In this document: one piece after another, positions 8,901-54,991 of the stretch
How the letters are laid out: every line of letters starts with the position of its first letter
How positions within the stretch are numbered: the stretch's first letter is position 1
IMG/VR virus record: IMGVR_UViG_3300007171_000004
Coordinates: 128,001-192,000 of that record
Direction: 5' to 3' (one strand)
Source: a virus
Taxonomy: Duplodnaviria; Caudoviricetes
Length of the DNA: 64,000 bases
Notes under the pieces: model-generated
Told to the model about the DNA's origin: nothing
The model's input: only the letters and a program-made list of their open reading frames with translations
Database searches by the model: none
Program-made: the position numbers and the translations under genes

Positions 8901-8901
8901 A

Positions 8902-20831: not shown

Positions 20832-23735
20832 TTATGTTCCTACGTTCGCATCTTTAGCGCCATTTATTTGTGCTGTAATTACATTTGTTTTTTTATCAAT
20901 TATATAAGTACATCCAGTATATAAGTATCTATCAGTAATTAATGGTTCCTGATTGCCTATAAATGTCTGAATTGCAAAAGTTCCATATAAAGTTAATGGC
21001 TTACTTACAATACATGTAAATTTTATATCTGAAAAAGTATTTCTTATTATTCTTTTTACTTGTTTGAAATAAATATTTAAACCTGTATAATCTTGCAAAA
21101 ATCCTGATGTGTCTCTTACTAAATGAAATTTCCTATAGCCTACATAGCCAATTTTGGAAGGTACTATTGTTTTATCATCTACACAATCATTCAATCTTTG
21201 TATTCCTAATTCTGTAAGAGCTGTATCATTAATTGAAACAGATCCATCATAAAATTCATTTCTTCCAATAACTGTAGAATCAAAGCCCTGTCCATACATT
21301 TCAAGCCCAGCAGCTAGATTATTAGTTTGTGATGTAATTGTATAGCTACTTGATAAAACTCCATGCCAATTCTTAGGAAATCTAGAGTCAAATTCAGATC
21401 CAGCAGAAAAATCAACTCCAAATGTTTCTCTTTCTCCAATAAAATAAAGAACATCACTAAAAGAAGGCTCATATCTCCAAGTTAATTGAAAATATCTTAA
21501 CTCTGCATTCCAAATAAAAGATGGGAACCCTCTGTAGTTCAAACATTGATTTAAAATACTATTGATTTTAGGAAGAATAAATTCATCACTTCTTGCACTA
21601 AAGTTTCCAGCATCAGGAACACTATATTGACCATAAGATACTTGATTTCTTAAAGCTAATGTATATTCTGAAAATGTAGGATCTTCTGAAGATTCTTGAA
21701 TAAAGAATTGATTTTGAAAACCTGCAGAGAGTATGATTCTTTTAATAATGTCTAAATACTGCATACCTCCAAATTCAATATATGGAATAGTAAAGCGAGT
21801 TTCTTCTAAGACAGAAGTTACATCTTTAAGGCTAATAGAAATCGTGGATCCAGTAGCTGATCTTACTACAGTTACGCTATCATTTATTCCTTGGTAATAT
21901 GTGTAAAGTTCGTCATATCCAGCTTTGATGGTAAATAATAAGACATTGTTCTCAATAGCTTCTAAAATTCTTGCCCCACGTTCAGTAGTATCAATATTTT
22001 TAAGTGTTAACGTTGCAGATCCTGTTATTAAACTATGATTCTGATTTTTACTAGAGTAAATGATATTTACGCTATCAAAATATGGACTTAAATCTCCCCA
22101 ATTTAAATCAACAATACCAGAATCTTTAATTTCAGAAACTGGAGTATTAAGAACAATTTTACGTAAGCAAGGACCCTCGATAGTTGTGTTCCATTGAAAA
22201 TATCCAGTAACAGAAACAGTATTTTTTTTGGTATTTATTGATTTTGATAATTCATAATATCTTATGGTACTTAAATCACTGCTTCGCTTATCTATGAAAG
22301 CTTGTGTGTCAGAAAATTGATCTGTTATTTCAGAATATTGTTCTAAATCCTTAAATTTATGTCTATTGAAAGCTTCATTTACTTTCTCGGCATTAAAAGA
22401 CTCAGTATATTGCTCTTGTGTGCCTTTGAAAGAAAACTTATACTTGTTCTTCAAAGCGTCAAAATCTAATTTACTACTCTTGAGAAACGAATCAGTATCA
22501 AAATTTTTAAAAGCAATTGGAGCATATGTGTAAGAGCAATTAATATTGTTAAACTGGATTTTAATTTTATTTATTTTGTCCGCAGAATGGATAATTTTCT
22601 CATTATAATTTGAATCAGGAGAAATGTTTAACGGAAACAATGTATCCCATTTTGAAGGATTATCATCTGTGCCAATCATTAAGTTAGATCCAACAAAATA
22701 CATGTGAATCTTAAACAAATTACTATCAATAGAAAAATTTAATGGTGGAGCTTCAACAATTGCGCCGACTAAAGGATGATAATATTTTAAGACAATTTTA
22801 GTGTCAACAATTTCTATTCTATAAAAAGAAATTACTGGAAGCAAATTTGAAAATGTAATATCACCTAATTCAACTACAATTCCAGAAACCGAACTAACTG
22901 AATTTGGATTATTATTTTTGGAACTTGCAGATCTATCAAATGTTAAAGTACAACCACTAAAACCATTTGTATTGATTGATTCAGACCTGCGATAAACTTG
23001 TCCATCATTCCATAAAGCACTGTAAGAAAGCTTAGCTCCATTGTTTGCTAAATCTTGCTTTACAGAAAATAGTCTAGTCATAATGCAAGATGAATTTATA
23101 GCAGATACATAAATTTTAGCTGAACCATCGTTTGTATAGACTTGTCTTACAGATGAACCTTTATAAGTTGGTCCATATTTGTATCCATGATATTTAATTA
23201 TTTGAACATCAGAAGATGAAGTTATTCCTTCTTGATACCAAACATTTGGGCTAACAACAGGATAAATAACGTCTGCAAACTTTGAATTCTTTCGAGTCAA
23301 AACAGTAGGAATGTCTGTAACTTCGTTAAGTTGTAACTGATCTGTGTAAATGCTCGAATATCTTGCAGTTAAATCCAAATCAGATGAATAATTTACAGTA
23401 TAATTTGGACCCTTGATGAGATTGAAAACCGGATGTACATCATCAGGAGCTAATGCTCCATAGACAAATGTACATTCAGGTGCACCAATGTTAGTATTAA
23501 TTGTTGGTAAATACGTCCCAGCATTAGAATTGCTATAAACTAAACCTGTAGTTGCAATTTTTCTATTACCTTTATTGTCTATAGCATATGAAGATTTTCT
23601 ACCTAAAACAAACTTCTCTCCACCATCAAATACTGCAGATACATTACCGCCAGGATAAGTACCGTCTTGTGGATAGTATAATGCTGAAACAGTACAACTA
23701 ATCTTTAATTCTCTTGTGTCATCTAAAAGTGGCAT
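20832..23735 (-). CDS. Baseplate hub / Tal-like protein (T4 gp27/Mu gp44-like fold in the C-terminal half)
   Basis: C-terminal pattern typical of hub proteins (SISLKDVTSVLEETRF..YLDIIKRII..ILPKINSIL..PSFIWN..; terminal strands YLYTGCTYIID..ITAQING); position upstream of fibre genes. Confidence 0.55.
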   Translation of the reverse strand: MPLLDDTRELKISCTVSALYYPQDGTYPGGNVSAVFDGGEKFVLGRKSSYAIDNKGNRKIATTGLVYSNSNAGTYLPTINTNIGAPECTFVYGALAPDDVHPVFNLIKGPNYTVNYSSDLDLTARYSSIYTDQLQLNEVTDIPTVLTRKNSKFADVIYPVVSPNVWYQEGITSSSDVQIIKYHGYKYGPTYKGSSVRQVYTNDGSAKIYVSAINSSCIMTRLFSVKQDLANNGAKLSYSALWNDGQVYRRSESINTNGFSGCTLTFDRSASSKNNNPNSVSSVSGIVVELGDITFSNLLPVISFYRIEIVDTKIVLKYYHPLVGAIVEAPPLNFSIDSNLFKIHMYFVGSNLMIGTDDNPSKWDTLFPLNISPDSNYNEKIIHSADKINKIKIQFNNINCSYTYAPIAFKNFDTDSFLKSSKLDFDALKNKYKFSFKGTQEQYTESFNAEKVNEAFNRHKFKDLEQYSEITDQFSDTQAFIDKRSSDLSTIRYYELSKSINTKKNTVSVTGYFQWNTTIEGPCLRKIVLNTPVSEIKDSGIVDLNWGDLSPYFDSVNIIYSSKNQNHSLITGSATLTLKNIDTTERGARILEAIENNVLLFTIKAGYDELYTYYQGINDSVTVVRSATGSTISISLKDVTSVLEETRFTIPYIEFGGMQYLDIIKRIILSAGFQNQFFIQESSEDPTFSEYTLALRNQVSYGQYSVPDAGNFSARSDEFILPKINSILNQCLNYRGFPSFIWNAELRYFQLTWRYEPSFSDVLYFIGERETFGVDFSAGSEFDSRFPKNWHGVLSSSYTITSQTNNLAAGLEMYGQGFDSTVIGRNEFYDGSVSINDTALTELGIQRLNDCVDDKTIVPSKIGYVGYRKFHLVRDTSGFLQDYTGLNIYFKQVKRIIRNTFSDIKFTCIVSKPLTLYGTFAIQTFIGNQEPLITDRYLYTGCTYIIDKKTNVITAQINGAKDANVGT

Positions 23736-26700
23736 TATGCATATCCTATCGAATTATTAACATTCCCATCAGCAAATAATATTCTGGATTTTAATTTGTC
23801 TTGTGAATCTTTATACCAAATATGTAGTTCACCTTGTTTACCGGGATTGTTAGAAATTAGTAACCCAGGCTTTTGAGAAGGAACATTGGTTTCAACTTCT
23901 CCAGATTGCTTGACAGAAATATAGCCTATATTTACCATAGCTTCAAGGGCGCTATCTAAACTATTATTTGCCGAATCGAAAGTTCTGCTACCTGCCACAA
24001 GATTCAAAATAGGTGCAATAGATATAATTTCTTGCGACCCATGTAAGTAATCGTGATTAGGATTTATTATAGCTACAAAGATTCTACCTGCACACCAAAA
24101 GGCTAAACAATATGTATTTTCGATATGATTATATTGCAAATTTAATCCTTTGATTTTTAATGTAGAAGGTATTAATATGCCGGTGTTTTTCATCTCAATA
24201 ATAGGAAACTGTTCAGATGGAATTTCATTATTTACAGTTTTGCCGTAAATAGATCCGGGATTGCTAGCAGAAGAATAGCAGACAAATACATTTCCATATT
24301 TATCAAGTGCAATTCCAGGAAAAGTATTTTCTGGAGAATCAGAATCTTGAGAATCTGCATGAATCAAAAAATTATCATTCTCAGATGTTTTTACTCCAGC
24401 AATCCATACAAATCTATTTTCAGAAACACCATTTGAAAAAACAACAGTTGGATTAGCAAGACTATAAACTACTTTATTGTTTTCTAAAATTCCAACAATA
24501 TGAGTTAAATCATTAATCATATTATTAGCTGTGCTTGCAAAATTAAGACTGTTCAATATTTTAGATGAATTATTAAATGAGTTGTCTTCTGAATCAAAAC
24601 CTATTCTAGACCAACTTCTCTCTCTGCCAGCTGAAAAATTATAATATCCATCAACCGAATTTATCTGTTCGCCAGTTTGACCTAATAATAAACCTAAAGA
24701 TTTATTTCCGTAAAGAGAGTGATTGTTATTATTCATGGTAAAAAGCTGTGGATTATTACCTTTTATTTCAACAGTAGCTTCACCATTCATACCAGCAAGA
24801 TTAGTTTTGGTAAAGAAATTTAATTCGTTTGAATTAGTGGAAAAATATTTGACATAATTTCTGCCATCAGAGAATGTAATAGCTGTAGAAGGATCATCAA
24901 AAGCCACATGAGTAGAAAATGACAAATTATCTTCTACTGCAGTGACCGATATCTCACCAATTTCAGCTTCTCCGGGTACAGTCCTAAACCAGAAATCTTT
25001 GTTTGTATATCCTAATGCTCCAGATCTTACTTCAGTAGAATTCGGCATTGAGAGCTGCCAAGTAGGGGAGTATAGACAACCACTTACATTTAGACCGTCT
25101 GTGATAGTAGTTATCATTGTATCTTTTAAATCATCATCTAAAATAAACCAACAACTTGAATCGTCAAAGGCTATTCCTGGCACTAAATCTAAATCTTCAT
25201 AAAATCCTGGAGAACCCAATTTAGAATCAGAAGCATCTAAATCTAAAAATTTAACTGTATGAGAAGTTATTTCAATAGATTCTAATTCATAAAACAGCTC
25301 TGTAAATCCAAATTCAGTTCTAATATCGCCTAGAGATTTATCAGCAAATAAAGCATATGGATATAAATTAATTCTTAATATTAATTGTGAATTATTATTG
25401 CCTGTAAGAAATGGGAATGCAACATCAAATTTAAAATCATAAACTTTGTTTAAATAACCGGACTTATATATTCTCTCGACAACATTGCCATCTAAAGAAA
25501 TTGAGAATATCTCATATGAAATCCTGAAGTTTAGAAAAGTCTCTATCTTCATTCCTAAATTTGATGGTTTTATTGAAATTTGCCATGTTCCAATGTCAAC
25601 TTTAGCTGAATTTAATGGTCTTATTAATGTGCAAAAGTCAAATATAAAAGATAGTTTGGGATTAAAAGATTCAGCAAAAGAATCAAAATATAATCTTACC
25701 AAAGGTCTTTCATTAACTTCGTCTTGCATAATCAATAAATCTTGGAATGCATTATCAGAATTAGTCTTGGCTATACCTTTATATAAAATATATTCCCCAA
25801 CTTCTGTGCCGTTAACGAGACTTTTAGACACAACAAAAGGTTCAGGTAATTTTGTATATTTAGCATTATCAAACTCAGAAGCTTTTCTTGGATATAAAGT
25901 TGCTGTAATTGCTCTTTGTATAGGAGTTTGTATACCATCACTAGTCGAAGATAAATCAAAAACTACAGTTGGGGTATAAAGCAATTCTTTTTCACTAAAC
26001 TTCTTATTTTTATATTCATCATTAAGTGAAGAAATTGCATATATCCCAACACAAAGTTTATAAGATGTTGCTCCTGAAACTTGAAATCCTTTAACTTCTG
26101 CTGCATATCTAACCAGATCAATAAAAGTAAAATCAGAAGAAATCGAGGATGATACAAAAACTTCATCTAAAGAAGAAGGCTTACCTATTTGAGCCTGAGT
26201 TATATTATTACTATATTTGAAAATAATTTCATTAACATCTCTATATTGGTGAAAATTAGCGGTATTTGGAACAAAATCTTTTGGAACAAACCATATTCTA
26301 GCAATAATATGTGTGTTTGCCATATTTAATTTATCTATAACCTTCGCAGTTACTTTAAATGTATATGCACCTTGAGAAGCTGAAATTGAGGGTTCATAGC
26401 TGAATTTATCATCGCTAACAAAAAACAAAATAGGATCTAAGGCGTTAATAGCGTTCATGCTAAAGTCACCAGATTTATTTGGATTTATTAAAAGTGGTTT
26501 ACCCGAATGCTCCGAAGAATCTGTTGAACTATACAAAGTTTCTTCATTCATAACCAGAGCTGAATTATAATGATCCAGCTCAGGAGTGATAGATTCTTGA
26601 TATGTAGAGCCATCTGGGTATCTGACAAAGACTCTAAATTTTATATCATTAAAAGAAAAGCCTGTACTATTAATAAATCTATAAATATAAGGGGCAACGA

Positions 26701-27937
26701 AATTCTCAGTATTTCCTAAAGTTGATGTAATCGTGTGAACTAAAGACCATTCATCACTTTCTTTTGGGGCAACTTGAATTTGTAAAGAAGACCAATCTTC
26801 ATTTATATTTAATTTTGGAAGTGATAATATTCTTGATTTAGAATAAACACTTTGATTCAAAAAAGATAGATTTAACTGCTTGCTTTCAGCTATTGTGCTA
26901 ATAATTCTTGTGAAGTATAATCCAGATCCTGACAATTGCCCCATACTTAAAATTGCTAATGGATCTAATACAGTTACAGGCCAGGAAAATATTAAAAATC
27001 TCAAAGAAACTGAATGTGCAAATCCAGGACTATTAAATGTTTGCGTTGGATCAAAAAGTTTTATATGAAGATTAGGTCGTTTAAAATCTATCGAAGTTGG
27101 AAAATATAATGACCTGACTGTTGGATTATAATTAAATAAAGTAGGAAATGCATAACTCAAAACATTACATGGAACTTGCTCATCTCTTAAATTAACTTTC
27201 TGAGCGTCAAATAGGTAAATTTTATATATAGAAAGTCTTACAGAAGGAGCATTTCCTAGTACTTTAATTTGAATATTTGATACTTCTGCAAAATCTGTTG
27301 TAACAACTCCACTCCCAAATCTAATAGTTGTCTCCCTTTGAGTTAATAATGTTGCATCAGAATTTCTAAGACCAGTAGCTTTTAATTCAAGTTTATCCTT
27401 ATTAGAATCAATTTTTGGATCAGGGTATTCTTTACCATCAATCAAAACAGTACCTAAAACATACTTATTCATATCTACATTAAAAGAAGCTTCAGGATTA
27501 TTTCTATTGTTTATAATCTCTTGATAATCAGCTGTATCAACTATAGAAGATAATTTTGGATCAAATGGAGATATAGATAGAGTGTATACAATCTTAATTG
27601 CCGATAATCTAGATTTAGAATTTAAGTCAATCGAATATAAAGAATTAATTCCATCAACTGTAAATGGAGTATTTGTAGCAAACTTTGTGAATGATGCTGG
27701 ATTTGCTAACAATCTAAAAGCATTCACAAAAGGAAAATCAAATGAATTCTTACTTGACTTCAACTCACCTTTGTAAGAAACTTTGACACTTTTATCAACA
27801 ACATCATTTCTGAACTTGCCATTTTCCAGACCCAAAGTTAAAAATCCCGTAGGTATTGAAGCACCAGTAGCCAAAGTTGTTGGATACCAATTAAAATTAC
27901 CTAAAAACGGTTTTCTTGTAGGATTTTCAAATGGCAT
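23735..27937 (-). CDS. Large baseplate/distal tail protein (1400 aa)
   Basis: Beta-rich ORF between the Asn-rich protein and the hub-like gene; C-terminal propeller-like blades (FPGIALDKYGNVFVCY). Confidence 0.5.
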   Translation of the reverse strand: MPFENPTRKPFLGNFNWYPTTLATGASIPTGFLTLGLENGKFRNDVVDKSVKVSYKGELKSSKNSFDFPFVNAFRLLANPASFTKFATNTPFTVDGINSLYSIDLNSKSRLSAIKIVYTLSISPFDPKLSSIVDTADYQEIINNRNNPEASFNVDMNKYVLGTVLIDGKEYPDPKIDSNKDKLELKATGLRNSDATLLTQRETTIRFGSGVVTTDFAEVSNIQIKVLGNAPSVRLSIYKIYLFDAQKVNLRDEQVPCNVLSYAFPTLFNYNPTVRSLYFPTSIDFKRPNLHIKLFDPTQTFNSPGFAHSVSLRFLIFSWPVTVLDPLAILSMGQLSGSGLYFTRIISTIAESKQLNLSFLNQSVYSKSRILSLPKLNINEDWSSLQIQVAPKESDEWSLVHTITSTLGNTENFVAPYIYRFINSTGFSFNDIKFRVFVRYPDGSTYQESITPELDHYNSALVMNEETLYSSTDSSEHSGKPLLINPNKSGDFSMNAINALDPILFFVSDDKFSYEPSISASQGAYTFKVTAKVIDKLNMANTHIIARIWFVPKDFVPNTANFHQYRDVNEIIFKYSNNITQAQIGKPSSLDEVFVSSSISSDFTFIDLVRYAAEVKGFQVSGATSYKLCVGIYAISSLNDEYKNKKFSEKELLYTPTVVFDLSSTSDGIQTPIQRAITATLYPRKASEFDNAKYTKLPEPFVVSKSLVNGTEVGEYILYKGIAKTNSDNAFQDLLIMQDEVNERPLVRLYFDSFAESFNPKLSFIFDFCTLIRPLNSAKVDIGTWQISIKPSNLGMKIETFLNFRISYEIFSISLDGNVVERIYKSGYLNKVYDFKFDVAFPFLTGNNNSQLILRINLYPYALFADKSLGDIRTEFGFTELFYELESIEITSHTVKFLDLDASDSKLGSPGFYEDLDLVPGIAFDDSSCWFILDDDLKDTMITTITDGLNVSGCLYSPTWQLSMPNSTEVRSGALGYTNKDFWFRTVPGEAEIGEISVTAVEDNLSFSTHVAFDDPSTAITFSDGRNYVKYFSTNSNELNFFTKTNLAGMNGEATVEIKGNNPQLFTMNNNNHSLYGNKSLGLLLGQTGEQINSVDGYYNFSAGRERSWSRIGFDSEDNSFNNSSKILNSLNFASTANNMINDLTHIVGILENNKVVYSLANPTVVFSNGVSENRFVWIAGVKTSENDNFLIHADSQDSDSPENTFPGIALDKYGNVFVCYSSASNPGSIYGKTVNNEIPSEQFPIIEMKNTGILIPSTLKIKGLNLQYNHIENTYCLAFWCAGRIFVAIINPNHDYLHGSQEIISIAPILNLVAGSRTFDSANNSLDSALEAMVNIGYISVKQSGEVETNVPSQKPGLLISNNPGKQGELHIWYKDSQDKLKSRILFADGNVNNSIGYA

Positions 27938-27938
27938 T

Positions 27939-30900
27939 TTATGATCTCATAAGTTTATTAATCGAATCTTGAATATAATTCAGTATTCTCTTATTTACAT
28001 CTGTTGACAAGACTTCAAGCTTTAAATTGGTCTTTTTCTCTATCTCTTGAATGATTGTCTCTTTATATATCTTAAACTGATTCTTTGTGACAAACTGTTC
28101 AACTTGCTTATCATTATTTTCTTTTAATTTTTTCTCAATAACGTTGTCAACAATCTGCATAACTCTTTCAACTTCTTTTTGATTATTAACAGATGTATTC
28201 ATAAATGTTGTATTGAAACTACTATCGCCAGATTTTGAAATTAATTGAGTCATGAAAGTATCATTCTTTTCAAATAATCTGTTAATACCTTGCATGAGAA
28301 TATTTTCAACATATTCTTCGGATTCAATATTATTATTTGTTATATTATCCTGTTTCTTACTAAATGGAGATTTACCATTACCATAATTATTTGTAGAGTA
28401 ATTATTAACTGTCTCATTTTTAATTAGATCCACATACTTATCCAAGGAGCCTAAAATTATTTGATCTTGAATGTCACTATAAGGAGAAGCAGAATTTATA
28501 TATGACTGGCTTTGATCGTATCTTATTGTTTCTAAAAGACTATTATTGACGTAAGAATTTTGCTGATTGTAAATATTATTAGTTGATCTTGAGTTAGATG
28601 AATTATTAGGCTTAGAAGGTGAGTAATATTTTCCTGTAAGTCTATCTATTCTTAATTGCTCTTGGGTAACAACTGGATTTGAATTATTATAAATATTAGA
28701 GAAATTAGCTTGCTCTTGATTATATTCTGTAAAGTTTCTAGTATTTTGAGTATTATTTGTCTCATTATATTCATTCACAGCATTATCATAATAAGTTTCA
28801 GTATATAAATTATCAGAACTAAAGAATTCATTTGATCCAGATTTCAAGTCCACATAATTAACTGGTTTATTCTCTGTGACATTTAAGCTATTCTGATATC
28901 TAGACAAATGAGATTCAAAACTATCTTTATTAAAATTATTGTTTACATTAATAATTTTTCTTTTGCTTTTTCTATTTGAAGTATTATTTGTAACTGAAGA
29001 AGATTTTGTATCCCCTTCTATATTTTGATTATTGAAAGTTTGGTTTGTAGTAGAATTTACATCTGAATAATTTTGAGTATTTAAAGTTTCTTGGTTATAT
29101 ACAGTTGAAGAATCATTATTTACTGTAGATGATTGTGTGTTGTATTCATTATTTTCTGTGGACGAATAGTTAGCAGAATCATTTTGATAATATTCTTCTG
29201 TTTCTAAAGTAATCTGCTCTTCAGAGATGTTTACATTTGTATCTCCATCTTCGTAATTGGAATTTTCAGAATTATATGTTGTATTATTATTCTCATTAGA
29301 TACATTATTTGAAGATTGATTATAACTCTGATTATTATTAGTAGTATTACCCTCTACGTTTTGATTAGATACATTTACACTCGAAACTGTCTGATCATTG
29401 CTAATATTATCAACATTAACATTGTTTTGGAAATTATAACTTTCAGTAACAAGTTGCTCAGAAGAATTTACTATATTATTTGATTGAACATTATTAAGAC
29501 TATTTGATATGTTAGTCTGAGAACTGTTATTTGTGTTATTGTTTTGAATACTAGCATTATTTGTTTCTATATTTACATTTTCTTCAGAACTATTTGACTC
29601 ATTATTAGTAACAGAATTTACATTTTGGCTTTGAGAGTTATAGATATCAAAATTATCAGTATTGCCTTCATAATATTCTTCAGTCTGTAAAGTACTCTGA
29701 TTATTGCTTACGCTTGAAGAGATATTATTATCAGTATTTGTAATATCTTGTTTTAATTCATTAGTGACATTCTGGTTATTGGATTCTGCAGATGAGTTAT
29801 TATAAACATTGTTGGTTTCAGAATTATATCCATTGGTTACAGTAGAACTTAAATTAGTTACCTCTGTCTGATTAACAATATTCTGACTATTATCTTGTGT
29901 ATTAAATGCAGTATTTTCTACATCATATTGTTCAGTATTTAAAGTTTCTTGATTATTGACAACAGAATCATTTGAGTTAATATTTAAAGATGTGCTATTA
30001 TTTACTACAGACTCATTAATATTAGACTGTGTATTATTTTCTATATTAGTATTATTCGTATTTGATTCTTGACTGCTAATGTATTCTTGGTTATTTTCAG
30101 AACTATAGGCATCTTGCTGACTATTTGAATTGTTTGTAGTATTCTGATTATATGTGTTATTGTCTGTGGAATTTATATTCTGATTATTGACAATATTTTC
30201 GGAATTAGTTGTTTGATTTAAGACTGTATTAGAATCTGATGAAATATTATTCTGAGTACTATTAAAGCTTTCAGAAGAGCTATAATTTTCAGTATTTAAT
30301 GTCTCTTGATTAATTAAATTTTGGTTAGACTCATTATTAACTGTCTCAAATTCCATGTTAGTAAGATTTTGAGAGTTGTTGATATTTTGGCTATTATTGT
30401 CTTGAGTATAGTTTTCAGTATTTAATGTCTGTTGATAGCTCTCGTTGAAAGTGTTATTTTGGTCCTTAAATGAGTTATTTTCCTCAGTATTAACCGTTTG
30501 ATTGTTGATGTTAAGATTGTCTGTATTTTGTTCATTAATTGTGCTATTTATCTGGACATTTTGATTCTGATTATTTATATCTGTCTGTTCATAAGAAGTA
30601 GACTCATTAATATTAAATTCATTTGAGTTTTGATTATTAATATTGCTTACAGATGAAGTATTATTGATATTATTGCCCGACGATGTGTAATTTACTTCCT
30701 CACTATTTTGATTGATATTTGTATTATTGCTACTTTGACTGAGATCTAGATTTGTATAGTTTTCTGTATTTAAAGTCTCTTGATTAACGATATTTTCTTG
30801 TTCAATTTCAGAGCTATTACTTACATTATTAGATTGGTTATTAATTTCCGTAGAATAATTATAATTTTCTTGAGATAGATAATTTTCTGTATTTAAAGTT

Positions 30901-33900
30901 TCTTGACTACTAAAATTTTCGTACTTATTTTCATTATTTGTATTCTGACTATTGTAATTTTGTTCAATATCGTTAGATTCAATATTTTCAGTATTTACAT
31001 TTGTCTCGTTATAATTTGATTCAGTATTAGATGTAGAGTTTTGAACTGAGGAATTATTTGAAGAGTTGGCAATATTAGTTGTAGAATTTTGCTCTTGATT
31101 AACATTCTGATTAAAAGTCTCAGAAGTTGTCTCGTTAAAATTTTGAGTATTTTCTTGGCTATTAGTTACATTGCTCGTAGTTGCATCATTTTGTGTATAT
31201 TGTTCAGAATTATAGATGTTTTCAGCACTATTATATGATTCTGTATTCAATGTCTCTTGAGTAAAGTTATTCTCTTCATAAGCATTTGATAAATTGTTTT
31301 CAGAAATATTTACTGTACTAGAATTTTGATTATTGATATTATTGCTATTATTGTTATCAGTGTAGTTTTCAGTTGCCAAAGTCTCATAATTATTGGTTTC
31401 AGATTGAGAATTTTCTGAATTAAATGTTTGAGAATTTTCCTGATTAATTAAAGACTCCTGATTATTAACATTAGTCGTACTAGAGTTATTTTGAATATTT
31501 GTTTCAGATTCAAAGATTTCTTGATTAGATTGATTTGTCTGATTATTATTTTGTTGATTATAATTATTTTCAATATTATTATTTGAAACGTTATTATCAA
31601 TATTATTTTCAGAACTAATCTTATTATTTACATTTTGAGTTGAAGAGACATTATTTTCTGATATAGAGCTATTTGAGACATCTAGATTATTAAAATTTTG
31701 TAGGCTATCTCCATTGATTGTTGAAGAATAATTTTCAGTGTTTAATGTCTCTTGAGAATCGATAAAAGTATTAGATTCATTATTAGAAACATTATTTGAT
31801 ACATTTGTTTCATTAAATGCTAAAGATTCATTGGATACAAATTCGTTATTCTCTTCATTTTCGTTTTTATTTACAGTTGTTTGATTAGAAGAAATAGATG
31901 TATTGTTTTGGTTCTGATTATTTTCCAAACTAGAATTTACAACATTATCATTAAAAACGGATGTAGATTCTTCATTCATGGAAACAGAAGAAGAGTCATT
32001 TTTAATTACGTTTTGATTAATTACGTTTTCTGTAGATGAATTTTCAGTTGTTAAGTTATTCTTTATAACTGCTTCATAATTTTCAGTATTAAGTGTTTCC
32101 TGGTTTACAAAAGTTGAATCAGATGCTAAATTTTCAGTATTAAAATTGTTATATTCACTATTTGATAATTCTTCAGTATTTGAAACATTAGAGTTATTTG
32201 AAGATGAATTGTTTGTTACATTGTTATTTTCTGTAATGATTGAAGATTGATTGTTTAGAACATCCACATTGCTGTTTAAAGTATTATCTTCAATGATAGT
32301 CTGATTAGATTCATTGCTTTCAGACTTAGAATTGTTTACATTTGAGTTCTGAACATTTGTATTATGAATAGATGAATTATCAATAATTGTGGAATTATTT
32401 TGATTATCCACAGAAACATAATCACTTTGTTGTGTATTACTTTCAGAATAATTTTCAGTGTTTAATTTCTCTTCAAAAAACTCATTGTTCTGTACACTGT
32501 TTAAATTAGTCTGTTCTGCAACATTACTTGTCTGATTGTTAATAAAGCTTTCGTTTGTAACATTTTCAGAATTATAGTTATTCTCTAAAGATTCTTGACT
32601 GTTTATTTCTGTTGAGCTAATATTTGTGGATTCAAAGTTCGCTGTATTATTAATCTCATCGTATTGATTTACATTACTAGCGAATGATGAAGATTGGTTC
32701 TGCTCATTGATGTTAGTAGTTGATGAGCTTGAATATTGATTGTTAACTGAATTTAGATTATTTTCATTATTTGATATATCAGTGTTGTTGGTTGTATTAT
32801 TTGTATTTTCAGAATTAACATTTAAGCTCTGATTATCAATATAATTTTCAGAATAATTAACCTCAGAAGAATAAGTCTCAGTGAATAACTTTTCTTCTGT
32901 AATGTTTAAGTTTTCTGCATTGTTGAAGTTAGTTTGATTAGTATTGCTAAAATTATTTTGAGCAGAGCTATTATCTACATCTATGTTGCTAGTAGTCTCA
33001 TTTATAACAGATTCATTGCTAAATTTATTTTCTTTATTTTCAGTTGTATTTTGGATATTAAGATCACTATTATTTTGAACACTCTCATTGCTACTAAAAT
33101 TGTCTGTCTGATTTATTGTTTCAGAATTATCAATTGTAGACTGACTATTACTTGAATTAACCTCATGCGTATTAGAAACTTGATTATTTTCAATATTCTC
33201 TGAGTTATTTAAATTTGTGACATTTTGAATATTCTCATTATCACTAGAATAATAATTTTCAGTATTTAATGTTTCCTCAGTAACAGAAGAGTTATTAAAT
33301 GTAGCACTATTTTCTTCAGTTAAATTGTTTGATAGATTTGAGGATTCAGTATTATTTGTAATTGAATTAGTTTCATTATTACTTATATTTTGATTTAAAG
33401 TTGTGGAATCAAAATTATTTACAGAATTGTCTACAGAATTAACTTGATCTCCTGAAATGTTTGAATCATATTGCTCTGTATTTAAAACTTCTTCTTCAAT
33501 AATAGTTTCAGTTATATTTATATCAATTTGCTGGCTATCTGTATTACTAGTAAAATTTTCTGAATTATTGTTAATGTTTGAAGAATAATTTTCAGTTACA
33601 TCAGTATTTTCATTTGACGTATTAAAATTCTGATTAACATTATTTGTCAGGTTATTGTTATTGACTAATTCAGAATTTGAGGAGTTATTGTTTGAAACAA
33701 ATGTGTCATAATATTCTGTATTTAAAGATTCTTCGTTGTTAATAATTGACTCATTTGAAACATTGAAGCTACTATTATCGATATTTTGATTGTTAGTTAT
33801 ATTTTGGTTAACAATCTGCTCATTGTTTACATTTTGATTATTCTCTGTGTTAGTAATATTTTGAGTGTTGTAAATCTGATCGGTTGTTTGATTTATTATG

Positions 33901-34634
33901 TTTTCAGTTTTATTCGTCTCATTATTTACTACTGAAGTGCTCGTAGCTATATCTAATGATTGATTATTATTTTCAACTTTATTTGATGAGTTATCTATAT
34001 ATTCATTTTCTATATTTTTGACATTTTTAGTATTTGGATTTAATGTCGTGATATTTATAGTTTTATCAAATGACTTATCTTTATTAGGTTTAACTGTCTT
34101 TTTGATGACAATTTTAGCCAACTTAACATTGATATCATCCTTATTAAAGAATGCAGCAAATGCAGCAGCCTTAGGGTCCATAGCCATAGCCTGAGATTGA
34201 TCAGCCATAGATTGCTTTTCAACTTTGATATCAACTTTTCTAGAAACAATTTCAACTTCCTCAACTGTTTTAGGTTTAGGAGGATTAAATACTGGAATAG
34301 TTTCTTCTCCAACTTCTTTTCTTTTGAAGTTTAAGAAAGTAGGATCGGCAGGGCGATTTCCACTATACTCATCAGTTTTAAGTGGAGAATAGCGTCGGGA
34401 AACTCTGGAGGTTGATAAAACATTTGCATCTTCAAGCGAAAAAATTTCATCAGGATCTTGTGTATTACCAGCTGTGTAACGATCGGTAGGAAGAGCTTTA
34501 CCCTTCATACCAGTTGCAGAAGATAAATTCTCTAAAGCATCTGACAATGAAGGGTCAATATTTTTAGCTTGTTTGAATGCATCAGATTTATTGGATATTT
34601 TATTATATGCAACCCAATTAATCTTATTACTCAT
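27939..34634 (-). CDS. Asn/Ser/Glu/Gln/Thr-rich low-complexity repeat protein (2231 aa); candidate non-canonical tape measure or ejected protein
   Basis: Central ~1650 aa has no Pro, Arg, Trp or Cys; 19 copies of [EQ]-x-L-x-T-E-x-Y; helical C-terminal tail; lies upstream of distal tail and hub genes. Confidence 0.6.
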   Translation of the reverse strand: MSNKINWVAYNKISNKSDAFKQAKNIDPSLSDALENLSSATGMKGKALPTDRYTAGNTQDPDEIFSLEDANVLSTSRVSRRYSPLKTDEYSGNRPADPTFLNFKRKEVGEETIPVFNPPKPKTVEEVEIVSRKVDIKVEKQSMADQSQAMAMDPKAAAFAAFFNKDDINVKLAKIVIKKTVKPNKDKSFDKTINITTLNPNTKNVKNIENEYIDNSSNKVENNNQSLDIATSTSVVNNETNKTENIINQTTDQIYNTQNITNTENNQNVNNEQIVNQNITNNQNIDNSSFNVSNESIINNEESLNTEYYDTFVSNNNSSNSELVNNNNLTNNVNQNFNTSNENTDVTENYSSNINNNSENFTSNTDSQQIDINITETIIEEEVLNTEQYDSNISGDQVNSVDNSVNNFDSTTLNQNISNNETNSITNNTESSNLSNNLTEENSATFNNSSVTEETLNTENYYSSDNENIQNVTNLNNSENIENNQVSNTHEVNSSNSQSTIDNSETINQTDNFSSNESVQNNSDLNIQNTTENKENKFSNESVINETTSNIDVDNSSAQNNFSNTNQTNFNNAENLNITEEKLFTETYSSEVNYSENYIDNQSLNVNSENTNNTTNNTDISNNENNLNSVNNQYSSSSTTNINEQNQSSSFASNVNQYDEINNTANFESTNISSTEINSQESLENNYNSENVTNESFINNQTSNVAEQTNLNSVQNNEFFEEKLNTENYSESNTQQSDYVSVDNQNNSTIIDNSSIHNTNVQNSNVNNSKSESNESNQTIIEDNTLNSNVDVLNNQSSIITENNNVTNNSSSNNSNVSNTEELSNSEYNNFNTENLASDSTFVNQETLNTENYEAVIKNNLTTENSSTENVINQNVIKNDSSSVSMNEESTSVFNDNVVNSSLENNQNQNNTSISSNQTTVNKNENEENNEFVSNESLAFNETNVSNNVSNNESNTFIDSQETLNTENYSSTINGDSLQNFNNLDVSNSSISENNVSSTQNVNNKISSENNIDNNVSNNNIENNYNQQNNNQTNQSNQEIFESETNIQNNSSTTNVNNQESLINQENSQTFNSENSQSETNNYETLATENYTDNNNSNNINNQNSSTVNISENNLSNAYEENNFTQETLNTESYNSAENIYNSEQYTQNDATTSNVTNSQENTQNFNETTSETFNQNVNQEQNSTTNIANSSNNSSVQNSTSNTESNYNETNVNTENIESNDIEQNYNSQNTNNENKYENFSSQETLNTENYLSQENYNYSTEINNQSNNVSNSSEIEQENIVNQETLNTENYTNLDLSQSSNNTNINQNSEEVNYTSSGNNINNTSSVSNINNQNSNEFNINESTSYEQTDINNQNQNVQINSTINEQNTDNLNINNQTVNTEENNSFKDQNNTFNESYQQTLNTENYTQDNNSQNINNSQNLTNMEFETVNNESNQNLINQETLNTENYSSSESFNSTQNNISSDSNTVLNQTTNSENIVNNQNINSTDNNTYNQNTTNNSNSQQDAYSSENNQEYISSQESNTNNTNIENNTQSNINESVVNNSTSLNINSNDSVVNNQETLNTEQYDVENTAFNTQDNSQNIVNQTEVTNLSSTVTNGYNSETNNVYNNSSAESNNQNVTNELKQDITNTDNNISSSVSNNQSTLQTEEYYEGNTDNFDIYNSQSQNVNSVTNNESNSSEENVNIETNNASIQNNNTNNSSQTNISNSLNNVQSNNIVNSSEQLVTESYNFQNNVNVDNISNDQTVSSVNVSNQNVEGNTTNNNQSYNQSSNNVSNENNNTTYNSENSNYEDGDTNVNISEEQITLETEEYYQNDSANYSSTENNEYNTQSSTVNNDSSTVYNQETLNTQNYSDVNSTTNQTFNNQNIEGDTKSSSVTNNTSNRKSKRKIINVNNNFNKDSFESHLSRYQNSLNVTENKPVNYVDLKSGSNEFFSSDNLYTETYYDNAVNEYNETNNTQNTRNFTEYNQEQANFSNIYNNSNPVVTQEQLRIDRLTGKYYSPSKPNNSSNSRSTNNIYNQQNSYVNNSLLETIRYDQSQSYINSASPYSDIQDQIILGSLDKYVDLIKNETVNNYSTNNYGNGKSPFSKKQDNITNNNIESEEYVENILMQGINRLFEKNDTFMTQLISKSGDSSFNTTFMNTSVNNQKEVERVMQIVDNVIEKKLKENNDKQVEQFVTKNQFKIYKETIIQEIEKKTNLKLEVLSTDVNKRILNYIQDSINKLMRS
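28791..33731 (-). repeat. Dispersed coding repeat, consensus QETLNTENY (plus strand ATAATTTTCAGTATTTAAWGTYTCTTG), 19 copies
   Basis: Copies located by eye; plus-strand coordinate of the conserved E/Q codon: 33714, 33474, 33258, 32877, 32454, 32082, 31734, 31368, 31239, 30885, 30762, 30414, 30288, 29931, 29679, 29442, 29196, 29073, 28797. Confidence 0.9.
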
Positions 34635-34637
34635 GGA

Positions 34638-36635
34638 TTATATTGTACGTTTTTTCTTTTTTCTTCTAATAGTGAAAGAAGGGGTTTTGCGGAATTTTGA
34701 TGGGTGTTCTAAAATTGTCCCATAAGGAGGGTCATTATCATAGAGTTCGTTATAATAATCTTCAATAACTTCATCAGCTACTTTTTCATATTTAGCAACT
34801 TTGATGAATTTTTCAGACTCAGATCCTCTAAATGGATTCCTATAAACTCCAGGGGACATTTCTCTTCTAAGAGCCTTGATCTTCAGCTCCATGGATCTAA
34901 TAATGCGTTTAGTTCTATCAGCCATGCCTTTAAAGACATTATCAGTATTTGGATCTCCAGTAGAAATAGAAGAATACATTGATAAAGCTTGAGATCTTAA
35001 TCCCATTTCAGTTTTATATGTAGCAATAAGAGCATCATATACAGGAAGTAAATTAATACCTCCAGATTGAACAGCGTTATCCTTTTCAAGCTCAGCGGAT
35101 TCTCTTTGAGCTTTCACTTGAATAATTTGAATTTCTATAGGTAATGAAATAGTGTAAACATTTGCAGTAATTAAATCTTGCTGTCTAGCTGCAATTTCTT
35201 GTTGATATTTAACTAAAATATCTCTACTAATAACAGCTGGTGTTTTTTGCGATGGGTCAATGGTAGCTATATCGCTCTGAAATTTTTCACCAACATCTAT
35301 CAATTGATTTAAAACTTTAATATCATATTCAATTGTATTCTTGTAATTTTCTACTTCTGTTAGAATTGCCTGTGGGTCGATATTTTCAACAGTAGTATTT
35401 GTGAAAAATTGTTGAGTTTCTGTAGAGCTTCCATAAGAATATTTTAGAACTTGATCAATTCTTGATTTAATTTGAGTAATTTGTTCGCTAAGTTTACCAT
35501 GCTGTTCAACAAGAATTCCTAATTCACGTTGGATTTTCATCTGTTCAGCACTAGTTTTACTTCCTGCAGCCATACTAGCAGCTTGATTAGCAGGAGCAGT
35601 AGATGGAAGAGGACCAACACCTGGAGTAGCACCTGTAGGTCCAGTTCCCATTAATGAAGTAAATGTTGGAGTAGTACTTGTAGGAGGAGCAGCAACTCTT
35701 ATAAATTTATTAGATTGAGCTCCTCTTCCTGTTTGAGGTACAGAAATATTACCTCCAGGAAGCATTCCCTTTCCAACATCTACTGCTGTTCCAGTAGAGG
35801 ATAATATTTGTAACATTCTGTTCCAGTAAGCTAGTATTGACCCAAGAGGTCCATTCATATTTTTAAGATATAAATCTCTTAAGTTTTTCAATACTCCAGC
35901 ATTATATTCGCTTCTACCTTTGATCATTTCAGTATCAAATTTACCCTTGGTCATTTCAAGCTTTTCTTTTTCCATCTTTTCCTTTTCACGGGCTAGTTGA
36001 AGTTCAGAAACTTGCTTAAATCCATCAGTAGAAGGAGAACCTAAGGCTTTAAAAGCTTGTTCAAGAGGCTTAATATCATCTGCATTACCACCAGCGCCTA
36101 AGGTGGTGTAAATCATCGGAATTTGATTAACTGCAAAAGGATCACCAAAAGCTAATGCTAATGCAGTGTCCATTATTCTTAGACTTGGATGTTTTTTCTC
36201 ATATTCATTAATAAGTTTAAGAATATTCTTAAAGTGAGATAGGTCCTCAAAGCCAAATTTACTAGCTAATAGTTTAATAAATATTTCGAATGTTTGAGGA
36301 CCATCCATAAATCCCATGGAGGCAGTTTCAGCAACAATATTAAAAAATTCAGTAATTTTTGATGGACTTAAAAAAGATGTAAGTCTAGCATAGTACTGAT
36401 TTTTAAAAGTTGGTTCATCGCTTGGCAAGCCAGCAGCAGCTGCTGCTTCAAAAGCCAATTGGAAATCTCTTTGTTGTTTGGCGTTCTTATCAGCATCGGT
36501 ATCTAAGCTACTTTTACCTTCTTCAGATTTAGTATCTTCAGTCTGTCTGCGAGTACGCCCAGCAATATCGGCTCCAATTTCTTCGAGAGCTTCACCAGTT
36601 GTTACGGCTTCTGCACCTGGAATTGTAGTAGGCAT
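34638..36635 (-). CDS. Helical/coiled-coil virion protein (665 aa); internal, ejection or tape-measure-associated
   Basis: Heptad-like helical segments, Pro/Thr/Gly linker, repeated KFI[RK]VA motif, basic C-terminus RRKKKKRTI. Confidence 0.5.
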   Translation of the reverse strand: MPTTIPGAEAVTTGEALEEIGADIAGRTRRQTEDTKSEEGKSSLDTDADKNAKQQRDFQLAFEAAAAAGLPSDEPTFKNQYYARLTSFLSPSKITEFFNIVAETASMGFMDGPQTFEIFIKLLASKFGFEDLSHFKNILKLINEYEKKHPSLRIMDTALALAFGDPFAVNQIPMIYTTLGAGGNADDIKPLEQAFKALGSPSTDGFKQVSELQLAREKEKMEKEKLEMTKGKFDTEMIKGRSEYNAGVLKNLRDLYLKNMNGPLGSILAYWNRMLQILSSTGTAVDVGKGMLPGGNISVPQTGRGAQSNKFIRVAAPPTSTTPTFTSLMGTGPTGATPGVGPLPSTAPANQAASMAAGSKTSAEQMKIQRELGILVEQHGKLSEQITQIKSRIDQVLKYSYGSSTETQQFFTNTTVENIDPQAILTEVENYKNTIEYDIKVLNQLIDVGEKFQSDIATIDPSQKTPAVISRDILVKYQQEIAARQQDLITANVYTISLPIEIQIIQVKAQRESAELEKDNAVQSGGINLLPVYDALIATYKTEMGLRSQALSMYSSISTGDPNTDNVFKGMADRTKRIIRSMELKIKALRREMSPGVYRNPFRGSESEKFIKVAKYEKVADEVIEDYYNELYDNDPPYGTILEHPSKFRKTPSFTIRRKKKKRTI

Positions 36636-36817
36636 TAATTTTTCCCAGAAATAATTTTATATGTGTTCGTGGAACAATGTGGACATTTTCCTTGAAGAGC
36701 ATGTCGGGAGCTTTTCATTTGGACTTGCTTAGGTCCTGTGACTGTAACCATAGTTCTGCATTTAACGCAGTACATTTGGTGTGTATGAGCGGCATTTTCA
36801 AGAGTTTGTGTTTGCAT
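36635..36817 (-). CDS. Small Zn-ribbon protein, DUF5679-like (Cren7-related fold)
   Basis: MYCVKCR-x19-GKCPHCSTNTYKI matches the YCVKC..G.CP.C.T pattern; TAATG coupling to the next gene. Confidence 0.75.
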   Translation of the reverse strand: MQTQTLENAAHTHQMYCVKCRTMVTVTGPKQVQMKSSRHALQGKCPHCSTNTYKIISGKN

Positions 36818-36869
36818 AAAAGGTATACCTCAGGTTCAAATATACTAGATTGTTGTACAAATTTCCTAT
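36818..36869. promoter_or_regulatory. Divergent promoter region with palindromes AGGTATACCT and TTGTACAA (36853-36860)
   Basis: 52-bp gap between divergent genes; both palindromes read directly from the sequence. Confidence 0.55.
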
Positions 36870-39120: not shown

Positions 39121-39124
39121 AAAT

Positions 39125-53226: not shown

Positions 53227-54593
53227 TGCCCTACAATAACGAATATAAAAATATCTATTCAATTTTAGGATTAGAACCTGGCTACAATGATCTTCTTTTT
53301 ATAGTCAAGAATGATGCAGTAGAACCATTTTTTAACTTTAATATAAATCAGATTAATTTTAATTATTGTTTGAGAACTTCTAATATTAGTTTTGAATACG
53401 AACAAAACGCATCTATCTCTCAAAGATTTGCTGGTGAAGGGAATTTTCCAAATAATTTAGCCGTTCAAAAACAAATTCTTAAGGTTTCACTTGAATTTCC
53501 ATTACTAGCTAATTCTTCTGGATATATTGATCATGCATTTTCAGCTCTTTGGGATTTAGCTTGTGAAGGATATCAGGGAACTCCAACTGTAGCTATGTCA
53601 GGCATCAAAAATTCACCTGCTCAAAATCCAGTTACGTTGCCTACAAATTCTAATACAATCTATCTTAAAAATATTGCTGAATTTGCAGACATACCAACAC
53701 CTTTCCAAATAACTATAGCATCTTGGGATAATTCTGAAGGACCTCAAACAACAACAGTAACAGCAATTAATAGAACTGAAAAATTCTTGCAAATCAATCC
53801 TTCTACCGCTGGCGCAAGAACTATAGAAAAAACAGTTATTTATCATGATCCAGTTTCATCGACTAGAAAAGCTACTTTTACCCTAGTTTCATTAAGAGAA
53901 GGTATTATTTCAAATTGTATTGTTGATAATATAACTTTAAATATAAACACTAACGGACCTATCACTGTTAGAGCTGACATTTTTGCATCTAATATTGACA
54001 GAAATTTACAGCCATTAATTAGCGATGATTTAGATACTTTTAGAGAAAATATAAATAAAATTGGCCCTCTAAGACAAGTATCAGGTATAAATACAAAATT
54101 AACATATATTAGCGCAAATAGTGGAAATTTCAATCTGTATCCAAGAATAGATGATAAATTTGTAACAGGATTTCAAGGAACAACAATATCATCATTTCAA
54201 GTACAAGAAATTAATCTTACTTTATCAAATCAAATAGATGAATTGTTTACAAAGCATTCTATACATAATAATTTAGATGCTAGAAAAAGAAATAATATAC
54301 ATCCATTTCTTATGACTTCTAATGGACAAAAATTTGAAGGCAGTATAAAATATTTTTCACCAATATCAGCTTTTACAATGGCAGAGATATTATCAGGCCC
54401 ATCATCTTTAAACGGGGGAGGCATTAGAATTGATACTGGAGATTTTAAAATTAACTTACAAGAATTAGCATGGACCCCTGTAAGATCATTTGGAAGTGTC
54501 TCAGAAAATACAGGAGAAGAGATAAAATTCCAGCTCTTGTCAGAATCTTTTATAATATCTCCTGTATTGGAGTTTTCAAACGATTATTCATGA
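53226..54593 (+). CDS. Tail tube-like protein 1 (455 aa, with inserted domain)
   Basis: Tube-like beta pattern (SNISFEYEQ..KVSLEFPL; VDNITLNI..ITVRADIFA; EINLTLSNQI..FEGSIKY); followed by a small chaperone-like gene. Confidence 0.55.
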   Translation: MPYNNEYKNIYSILGLEPGYNDLLFIVKNDAVEPFFNFNINQINFNYCLRTSNISFEYEQNASISQRFAGEGNFPNNLAVQKQILKVSLEFPLLANSSGYIDHAFSALWDLACEGYQGTPTVAMSGIKNSPAQNPVTLPTNSNTIYLKNIAEFADIPTPFQITIASWDNSEGPQTTTVTAINRTEKFLQINPSTAGARTIEKTVIYHDPVSSTRKATFTLVSLREGIISNCIVDNITLNINTNGPITVRADIFASNIDRNLQPLISDDLDTFRENINKIGPLRQVSGINTKLTYISANSGNFNLYPRIDDKFVTGFQGTTISSFQVQEINLTLSNQIDELFTKHSIHNNLDARKRNNIHPFLMTSNGQKFEGSIKYFSPISAFTMAEILSGPSSLNGGGIRIDTGDFKINLQELAWTPVRSFGSVSENTGEEIKFQLLSESFIISPVLEFSNDYS

Positions 54594-54991
54594 GTATTTT
54601 TATAGATCCTGATCAAACATTCGAAATTACGGTTAGATTTGTCCTAAAAGGAAGCATTAATGATACTTCTTCCGCTATTAAGATCCTAAGGGGCGAAGAA
54701 GAAGATGAAAATCAAATTGAATTAACTTGCGATGTCTCAGGAAGAGATTTTGATACAATGAGCAAAATATTAGAAGAAGCAACTATTATTAACTCTGTGA
54801 CAGGAGCTCCAATGGTCAGAACTTCTATTTTTTGTAAACTTGTAATTCTTAACTTCTTTAGAGCATGGAACCTTAATGACTCAGAAACAAACAAACAAGT
54901 GCCAATCTCCCAAGAAACTGTAGGAAAAATGAGATACGAACTAGTCAGAGAGCTTACATCTAAATGGCTAGACCTAACAAGCGCAAAATGA
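54590..54991 (+). CDS. Tail assembly chaperone-like protein (133 aa)
   Basis: Start moved to ATG 54590 (ATGA overlap); motif FFRAWNL..KQVPIS..VGKM is typical of TAC proteins; follows tube gene. Confidence 0.55.
   Translation: MSIFIDPDQTFEITVRFVLKGSINDTSSAIKILRGEEEDENQIELTCDVSGRDFDTMSKILEEATIINSVTGAPMVRTSIFCKLVILNFFRAWNLNDSETNKQVPISQETVGKMRYELVRELTSKWLDLTSAK

Follow-up and report, generated by a model that had tools for sequence, protein, structure and literature searches.

Can a giant, asparagine-rich and probably unfolded phage protein be held to a fixed length by selection, and if so, does that length serve the phage tail? The question is raised by P0001, a protein of 2231 amino acids (aa) encoded in the viral record IMGVR_UViG_3300007171_000004 of IMG/VR. 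Here we report the computational analysis of 64,000 nucleotides of this record (the window), which correspond to bases 128001-192000 of a linear contig of 300,536 bp with a G + C content of 33% and an estimated completeness of ~84%. The source of P0001 is an uncultured water-borne jumbo phage. Comparison with its relatives indicates that P0001 is a real and unusual protein and provides strong evidence of a length-quantised constraint; a fixed-length spacer in the tail is tentatively favoured as its role. The features of P0001 in window coordinates are as follows (ORF, open reading frame; dN/dS, ratio of non-synonymous to synonymous substitution rates).

27939..34634 (-): P0001, Asn-rich acidic repeat protein of 2231 aa (ORF and translation; orthologs of 1759-2268 aa, all with dN/dS < 1)
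28791..33737 (-): array of 19 motif copies, aa 300-1948 (positions, gaps, dN/dS, synonymous codons, quantised spacing)
29925..31379 (-): three super-repeats of ~160 aa, aa 1086-1570, each with a short linker (41-43 aa) and a long linker (116-119 aa)
31746..33269 (-): block of four modules, aa 456-963 (508 aa), missing from the orthologs of 1759/1760 aa
33990..34634 (-): conserved N-terminal domain, aa 1-215, of mixed charge (net +4) (ortholog identity)
28995..33989 (-): central core, aa 216-1880, a polyanionic spacer rich in N, S, T, E and Q (composition, AlphaFold2)
27939..28994 (-): conserved C-terminal domain, aa 1881-2231, with the last ~125 aa helical (ortholog identity, AlphaFold2)

Motif array and spacing

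The pattern L.T[EQ].Y occurs at 19 sites in P0001, from aa 304 to aa 1943, and belongs to a fuller consensus of two hydrophobic residues, two variable residues and then E-T-L-N-T-E-N-Y. Successive motifs are separated by 80, 72, 127, 141, 124, 116, 122, 43, 118, 41, 116, 42, 119, 84, 79, 82, 41 and 92 aa. The markers and spacings listed in a preliminary description of the locus were thereby reproduced exactly, and its proposal that the gaps cluster near 41, 81 and 120 aa agrees with class means of 41.8, 81.5 (2 x 40.8) and 122.9 (3 x 41.0) aa. The three gap classes are one, two and three units of ~41 aa. The gap-phase statistic, scanned over periods of 25 to 100 aa, reached its maximum of 0.69 at 40.25-40.5 aa, and only 6 of 3000 random motif placements with a minimum spacing of 30 aa attained this value at any period (p ~0.002). 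The super-period of 161, 157 and 161 aa that the same description had pointed out is real; the gaps of the super-repeats (43, 118, 41, 116, 42 and 119 aa) are the same within +/-1 aa in every ortholog that covers aa 1086-1570. P0001 thus shares with tape measures the presence of internal repeats with periodic aromatic markers, here a Tyr-containing motif at one, two and three times ~40.5 aa.

The motif is maintained at the protein level, because its codons vary synonymously (GAA/GAG 8/7, ACA/ACT 6/7) at roughly the codon usage of the whole gene. No tandem repeat at the DNA level was found beneath the motif pattern, and Tandem Repeats Finder returned tiny repeats only. Recent DNA duplication as the origin of the periodicity was ruled out by this lack of tandem repeats together with the saturated synonymous variation. 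A search for in-phase 'dead' motif copies within the long linkers yielded a single case, at aa 345 (phase test, p = 0.35).

Orthologs and selection on length

Ten complete or partial orthologs of P0001 were obtained from aquatic metagenomes. Relatives were recovered by scanning metagenome contigs for the back-translated sequence of ETLNTENY (2-7 matches per contig), and further ones were added by look-ups of homologs of P0002, the protein encoded directly upstream. The sole IMG/VR match to the ETLNTENY pattern (L006) proved to be a chance occurrence inside an unrelated protein. The complete orthologs have 2230, 2231, 2268, 1760 (three contigs) and 1759 aa, and the genes that flank them are constant at 665/666 and 1400/1401 aa. 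The neighbour proteins are 81-94% identical to the window versions with 0-1 gaps, the P0001 orthologs 65-89% identical overall, and the linkers 57-65% identical (35-43% diverged). Synonymous divergence (dS) is ~1.0-1.4 for distant ortholog pairs, and dN/dS differs by region as follows.

Motifs: 0.03-0.06
Termini: 0.05-0.08
Linkers: 0.18-0.25
Neighbouring genes: 0.07-0.15

These ratios indicate that the motifs are under strong purifying selection. The linkers, with a dN/dS of 0.18-0.25, are relaxed yet not neutral, and their composition appears to be maintained.

Substitutions are numerous and small changes in length are nearly absent. P0001 and the ortholog L015 differ by 696 substitutions over 1979 aligned residues and by five single-residue insertions or deletions (indels) only; in the comparison with L062, 618 substitutions stand beside two single-residue indels and an insertion of 37 aa. 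Wherever the alignment is clean, indels of 2-36 aa are absent, save for a 2-residue insertion at the edge of the fragmented alignment of L051. Contigs from four further metagenomes (~95% identical, covering ~5.8 kb of the gene) contain compensating single-base indels only, with no net change in length. Larger events involve whole modules. A 508-aa deletion in L031, L061, L064 and L051 spans exactly the interval between the motifs at aa 456 and aa 964, with the loss of four modules, and a 37-aa tandem duplication including a motif lies near aa 1433 in L062, L031, L061 and L064. L051 carries an independent 37-aa tandem duplication at another place, and the two short lineages thus each pair the 508-aa loss with a different 37-aa gain, for final sizes of 1759 and 1760 aa. 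The orthologs strongly support the earlier suggestion that it is linker length, and not linker sequence, that is held fixed, with larger changes made by whole modules. Given the near absence of small indels, the linkers resemble a folded protein in their indel tolerance and an unfolded one in composition and structure prediction.

A divergent partial ortholog (L085:1167-4763, +), whose P0002 is 61% identical, retains the N-terminal domain and the motif, with gaps of 119, 76, 118, 68, 103, 115, 42, 114, 48 and 82 aa. Its quantisation is weaker (best period 38.6 aa, with p = 0.03 within the band set a priori and 0.11 when all periods are considered). Since its linker classes follow in a different order, the module arrangement is not conserved at greater distance.

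Terminal domains and core

The two ends of P0001 (aa 1-215 and aa 1881-2231) have an ordinary composition. The N-terminal domain is 93-98% identical among orthologs (dN/dS 0.06-0.08) and was judged by eye to be ~80% conserved in the distant relative L085; it had no match among Pfam families, PHROGs or the Protein Atlas. The C-terminal domain is 82-97% identical (dN/dS 0.05-0.08), and AlphaFold2 predicted four helices over aa 2106-2230 with a per-residue confidence score (pLDDT) of 50-69.

Asparagine makes up 25% of the whole protein. The 1665-aa core contains 485 Asn, 260 Ser, 184 Thr, 172 Glu and 125 Gln, with 8 Gly, 15 Lys and a net charge of -215; Pro, Arg, Trp and Cys, whose absence had been remarked on before, are each missing throughout aa 216-1880. 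Asn triplets (NNN) are depleted in the core (12 vs 41 +/- 7 expected), with a longest Asn run of 4. Hydrophobic residues are unusually evenly dispersed, the longest hydrophobe-free stretch being 15 aa vs 22-37 aa in shuffled sequences and the commonest spacing 5. The core is not low complexity of the slippage type.

No residue class outside the motifs was significantly periodic at 2, 3.6, 40 or any other period, and the hydrophobicity spectrum had no significant peak at periods of 2 to 200 aa. This rules out that linker composition conceals a periodicity of 40 aa or of the beta or helical type. The earlier remark that the linkers are unalignable holds between the paralogous linkers of P0001, which have no detectable mutual similarity (mean z 0.7-0.95 against shuffles, maximum 3.9). 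Helical propensity was present in only 5% of the windows scanned along P0001. AlphaFold2, run on aa 1560-2231 with a shallow alignment of eight orthologs, gave a pLDDT of ~27 and no secondary structure for the repeat part (~aa 1560-1900), and the core chain is probably unfolded. Of the disordered or beta-forming ruler or scaffold that had been proposed, a disordered spacer punctuated by motifs fits this prediction.

Comparison with known proteins

Searches of P0001 against Pfam, PHROGs and the Protein Atlas gave no match, and neither tblastn against 50,697 phage records nor comparison with the genome of phage G revealed a homolog. A word search of 5.8 billion proteins with the C-terminal and N-terminal regions was equally negative, and an exhaustive HMMER search with a profile of the C-terminal region recovered only fragments of P0001's own family. 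These searches indicate that P0001 is without homologs outside a single phage lineage.

P0001 resembles the tape measures lambda gpH, T4 gp29 and phage G gp183 in being a long tail-operon protein with conserved ends and a variable middle, in having units with a periodic aromatic marker, and in varying its length by gain or loss of whole units. Unlike theirs, its core is not helical and not rich in Ala, Gly and Leu, lacks hydrophobic or Gly-rich segments and a lysin domain, and is polyanionic and predicted to be disordered. Helices are confined to the C-terminal domain, chiefly its last ~125 aa. P0001 belongs to no tape-measure family (Pfam PF10145 and relatives, PHROG families), and the PF10145 model found nothing at E <= 10 in the whole 300-kb contig. 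The tape measure of phage G, the phage with the closest head genes, has 2893 aa and is conventional and rich in Ser, Gly, Ala and Leu (PMC8570332), without similarity to P0001. That the 665 aa of P0002 and the 2231 aa of P0001 add up to about this length was rejected as coincidence, because the short alleles break the sum and the compositions are unrelated.

Nebulin, the giant ruler of the muscle thin filament, consists of units of ~35-40 aa with a short Tyr-containing motif, grouped in super-repeats that are thought to match the periodic filament lattice. The units, Tyr-containing motif and super-repeats of P0001 are alike in kind; however, nebulin repeats are helical and basic with a motif in every unit, whereas P0001 is acidic and has a motif in 19 of ~40 units.

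Q/N-rich prion-like domains have been reported in phage tail proteins (PMC5694896), and P0001 is likewise Asn-rich and tail-associated. Such domains have Q/N stretches of at least ~60 aa with few charges; in P0001, the longest charge-free run is 35 aa, and every 60-aa window contains 4-14 acidic residues. Because its acidic residues (14%) are evenly spread, Asn runs are depleted and a selected motif punctuates the region, the core is not a typical aggregation-prone domain. The content of low-complexity sequence and tandem repeats in tape measures has been reported to scale with tape-measure and tail length (PMC13585406); that work deals with polyA/G/S/T tracts in conventional tape measures, not with a 1665-aa Asn-rich acidic core in which homopolymer runs are depleted. 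A DNA mimic of the pentapeptide-repeat or beta-solenoid type would require a strict short-period hydrophobic repeat, which was not found at periods of 2 to 200 aa.

Operon and P0002

The genes around P0001 that bear on its function are as follows.

36635..36817 (-): zinc-ribbon ORF of 60 aa, Cys-rich, opening the operon and overlapping the start codon of P0002 (L062 ortholog PF18930/DUF5679)
34638..36635 (-): P0002, all-alpha protein of 665 aa directly upstream of P0001, a rival or partner tape-measure candidate
23735..27937 (-): beta-rich protein of 1400 aa, coupled to the P0001 stop codon (TAA-A-ATG)
20832..23735 (-): protein of 967 aa with a weak 'tail protein' PHROG match (phrog_1887, E = 0.0013)
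53226..54593 (+): tube-like protein of 455 aa with a weak match to PF18906 (Phage_tube_2), in the divergent neck/tail operon
54964..56220 (+): second tube-like protein, of 418 aa, with a weak match to PF18906 (Phage_tube_2)

The operon runs from the 60-aa ORF through P0002 and P0001 to genes for proteins of 1400, 967, 1278, 317, 2279, 1221 (PA14 domain) and 2894 aa. P0002 and P0001 are joined by TAA-TCC-ATG, in frame, and P0001 and the gene of the 1400-aa protein by TAA-A-ATG; the three genes are translationally coupled, and no terminator-like site was found within window positions 27000-37500. A fusion of P0002 and P0001 by read-through or frameshift was rejected, as a TAA stop codon lies between the two, which share a frame, and a frameshift would not join them. 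P0002 is the first and P0001 the second large gene of this operon, which is divergent from a plus-strand operon with an Rnl1-like ligase, a Mu gp36-like adaptor, a PA14 protein and the two weak Phage_tube_2 matches. The gene of P0001 is placed in a tail-associated operon.

The 1400-aa protein is invariant in length (1400/1401 aa) and 86-94% identical in relatives; it had no match in Pfam, PHROGs, PDB or the Protein Atlas. The proteins encoded downstream of P0001 are beta-rich by propensity and had weak tail or tail-fibre PHROG matches only. No distal-tail or hub protein was recognised among them, so that the position upstream of such genes, which the preliminary description had assumed for P0001, was not confirmed; a tape-measure gene would be expected between those of the tail assembly chaperones and those of the distal tail and hub. 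Pfam models of sheath, distal-tail, Tal and tape-measure proteins had no match across the contig, and a PDB sequence search with the neighbour proteins gave no result. Five neighbours had no tblastn match in the 50,697 phage records, and no close relatives were found by searching IMG/VR with the neighbour proteins. Apparently similar N-terminal regions of ~50 residues with an I-Y-K-x-x-Y region were noted in the 1278-aa protein (window 16770-20606, -) and the 2894-aa protein (genome 124557-133241, -), which may share an attachment domain.

AlphaFold2 predicted 19 helices for P0002, several of them of 30-59 residues with a pLDDT of 77-93 (the long ones at 348-401 and 466-524), and a disordered segment rich in Gly, Pro, Thr and Ala at 280-347. 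In a comparison with predicted viral structures, most of the highest-ranking matches were annotated as tape measures, with full-length alignments that are weak (E 1e-3 to 1e-1). Against PDB and AFDB, only generic long helical proteins were found; the likeness of P0002 to tape measures is accordingly one of gross architecture and not of a specific fold, and identification as a specific tape measure by fold search was rejected. The strongly helical proteins of at least 350 aa in the contig are P0002 and proteins of the head module or replication region, and outside the head module there is no helical protein of at least 1000 aa in the 300-kb contig. On the strength of its predicted structure, P0002 is a credible candidate for a conventional tape measure. 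The preliminary description had named a canonical helical tape measure elsewhere in the genome as evidence against a tape-measure role of P0001, and P0002, all-alpha and with weak tape-measure matches, answers to this in part.

P0002 also contains two invariant copies of S-x-K-F-I-[RK]-[VI]-A (aa 308-316 and 607-615), which resemble the sequence hydrophobic-[KR]-x-A-x, a putative prohead-protease site, found ~30 residues from the N-termini of several proteins of this genome. P0002 may be proteolytically processed; P0001 itself is without such a motif.

Genome and lineage

The capsid protein (window 57824-58678, -) is 50% identical to the major capsid protein of Bacillus phage G. Among the phage G-like head genes (genome 189217-195893), the portal protein has 29% and a gp19 homologue 39% identity; the latter may be a prohead protease. 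BLAST similarity to phage G is limited to these three proteins, with none in its tail module, and the tail region has no match in any cultured phage at the DNA or protein level. Either head and tail form a mosaic in this virion, or the tail genes have been evolving far more rapidly than the head genes. Parts or close relatives of the P0002 gene were present in contigs of 13 metagenome studies of estuaries, rivers, reservoirs, fresh water and wastewater.

A second block of giant proteins (1255-2663 aa) with multiple lectin-like domains (Laminin_G_3, GLEYA, PA14) lies outside the window at genome positions 69984-112705 (loci L067-L071), and PA14 domains also occur at window positions 46071-49970 and 5244-8909. 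The set of carbohydrate-binding proteins of this phage is unusually large. Also outside the window, an ORF of 1071 aa (locus L079, genome 205677-208892) combines a LAGLIDADG domain with a match to the terminase large-subunit ATPase that is weak and below the curated cut-off (E = 0.0019), which suggests an intein or homing endonuclease within a terminase gene.

Function of P0001

The reading that we favour, though only tentatively and at somewhat less than an even chance, is that P0001 is a fixed-length modular spacer in the tail, a ruler or tether along the tail axis with the tube lattice or P0002 as its periodic partner. The two conserved terminal domains would serve as anchors, joined by ~40 units of ~41 aa of unfolded polyanionic chain that would be pinned at 19 points by the E-T-L-N-T-E-N-Y motif and the two hydrophobic residues preceding it. 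The motifs would dock on a periodic partner, for which successive rings of the tail tube or the helices of P0002 are candidates. Such docking would align P0001 with the tail, running along it or within it, where it would be either the entire tape measure or the long arm of one made of two parts. A polyanionic chain poor in Lys and Arg would avoid sticking to DNA and could exit through the tube ahead of the genome, and by rough arithmetic a lumen of 3.5-4 nm would have the volume for three to six such chains at 40 aa per chain per ~4-nm ring. Conserved termini are to be expected if they are bound to conserved partners, unlike the variable tips of receptor-binding fibres.

The strict claim that P0001 sets tail length is doubtful. 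An equally guarded view is taken of its most specific form, a disordered polyanionic tape measure with ~40 fixed-length units clamped to the tube lattice by the docking motifs and working with the short helical P0002. For the non-canonical tape measure first proposed, the tail-associated operon and the periodic markers speak in favour, and the non-helical core and the lack of a family match against.

Several points weigh against a spacer docked along the tail. Its main weakness is the length constraint of +/-1 aa, for which linkers that hang slack and disordered between docking sites would have no need. The long linkers are without in-phase degenerate motifs, aa 345 being the sole case, and neither 37 aa nor 508 aa, the sizes of the larger events, is a whole-number multiple of 40.5 aa. 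Between the natural variants of 1760 and 2231 aa, length varies by 21%, which is tolerable for a ruler and equally so for a fibre. The predicted disorder depends on a shallow alignment of 8 sequences. P0002 alone could be sufficient as a conventional tape measure, and another tape measure could be encoded in the missing part of the contig, which is ~84% complete.

If P0002 were the sole tape measure, P0001 might be anchored at the baseplate or tail tip and project from it as a flexible external filament or a polyelectrolyte 'brush'. It could serve as the shaft of a fibre, or as a hair for adhesion or against fouling, and divalent cations in the water might stiffen it. We consider this unlikely, although several observations speak for it: P0002 is built like a conventional tape measure and precedes the other large genes, numerous giant adhesin-like proteins with lectin, PA14 and GLEYA domains are encoded by the phage, length polymorphism at the level of modules is typical of surface repeat proteins, and N-x-S/T sequons are enriched in P0001 (162 vs 129 +/- 8). 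A free-hanging chain, however, needs no linker lengths fixed to +/-1 aa, and the C-terminus, unlike a receptor-binding tip, is among the most conserved parts of the protein (dN/dS 0.05-0.08). The linkers are without a sign of positive selection (dN/dS ~0.2). Pfam does not support a glycosyltransferase cassette nearby, such as would accompany a glycosylated adhesin of the serine-rich-repeat type: window positions 38065-41863 (+) gave no Pfam glycosyltransferase match at E <= 0.1; a 528-aa protein encoded there had weak photolyase and methyltransferase matches only.

Quantised motif spacing and fixed linker lengths are likewise not required if P0001 is an ejected pilot protein, an unfolded polyanionic thread that is stored in the tail lumen or capsid, enters the host before or with the DNA and might act as a DNA-like decoy. 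The absence of Pro, Trp and Cys, the net charge of -215 and the near lack of Lys and Arg would give a DNA-like charge and suit passage through a narrow negative channel, and the two invariant, putatively prohead-protease-like motifs of P0002 point in the same direction. P0001, however, has no such motif, and its gene is in the tail operon and not in the head operon; an ejected thread is improbable.

A still smaller chance is given to an assembly scaffold or chaperone that is absent from the virion: like lambda gpG/gpGT on a giant scale, it would cover the tape measure or bring in tube subunits by means of its repeated motifs, and afterwards be discarded. With 2231 aa, P0001 dwarfs all known tail chaperones and is over three times as large as the protein that it would serve, and small chaperone-like ORFs already follow the tube-like genes; the acidic, multivalent nature of P0001, its translational coupling to the tape-measure-like P0002 and the lack of a chaperone pair with a clear programmed frameshift beside P0002 are the points in its favour. 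That the core is low-complexity sequence without function, expanded by replication slippage and a mutation bias towards AT, as the local G + C content (25-26% vs 31-33% nearby) and the 25% Asn might suggest, is effectively refuted by dN/dS values of ~0.2 in linkers and 0.03-0.06 in motifs, the near absence of small indels despite dS > 1, the depleted Asn runs, evenly spaced hydrophobic residues and lack of DNA tandem repeats, and the conservation of a 6.7-kb open frame in DNA of 26% G + C in more than 10 metagenomic contigs.

P0001 offers an unusually clear natural example of selection that acts on how long the linkers are and not on their sequence. The 1760-aa and 2231-aa alleles occur side by side in nature, which would allow allele length to be set against tail length; if P0001 controls tail length, gain and loss of whole modules would give natural phages with discretely different tail lengths. 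To our knowledge, all tape measures described so far measure length by an extended helix. A disordered chain that keeps a residue-exact length across large sequence divergence would be a different physical answer to the problem of length control, or else a new type of tail component.

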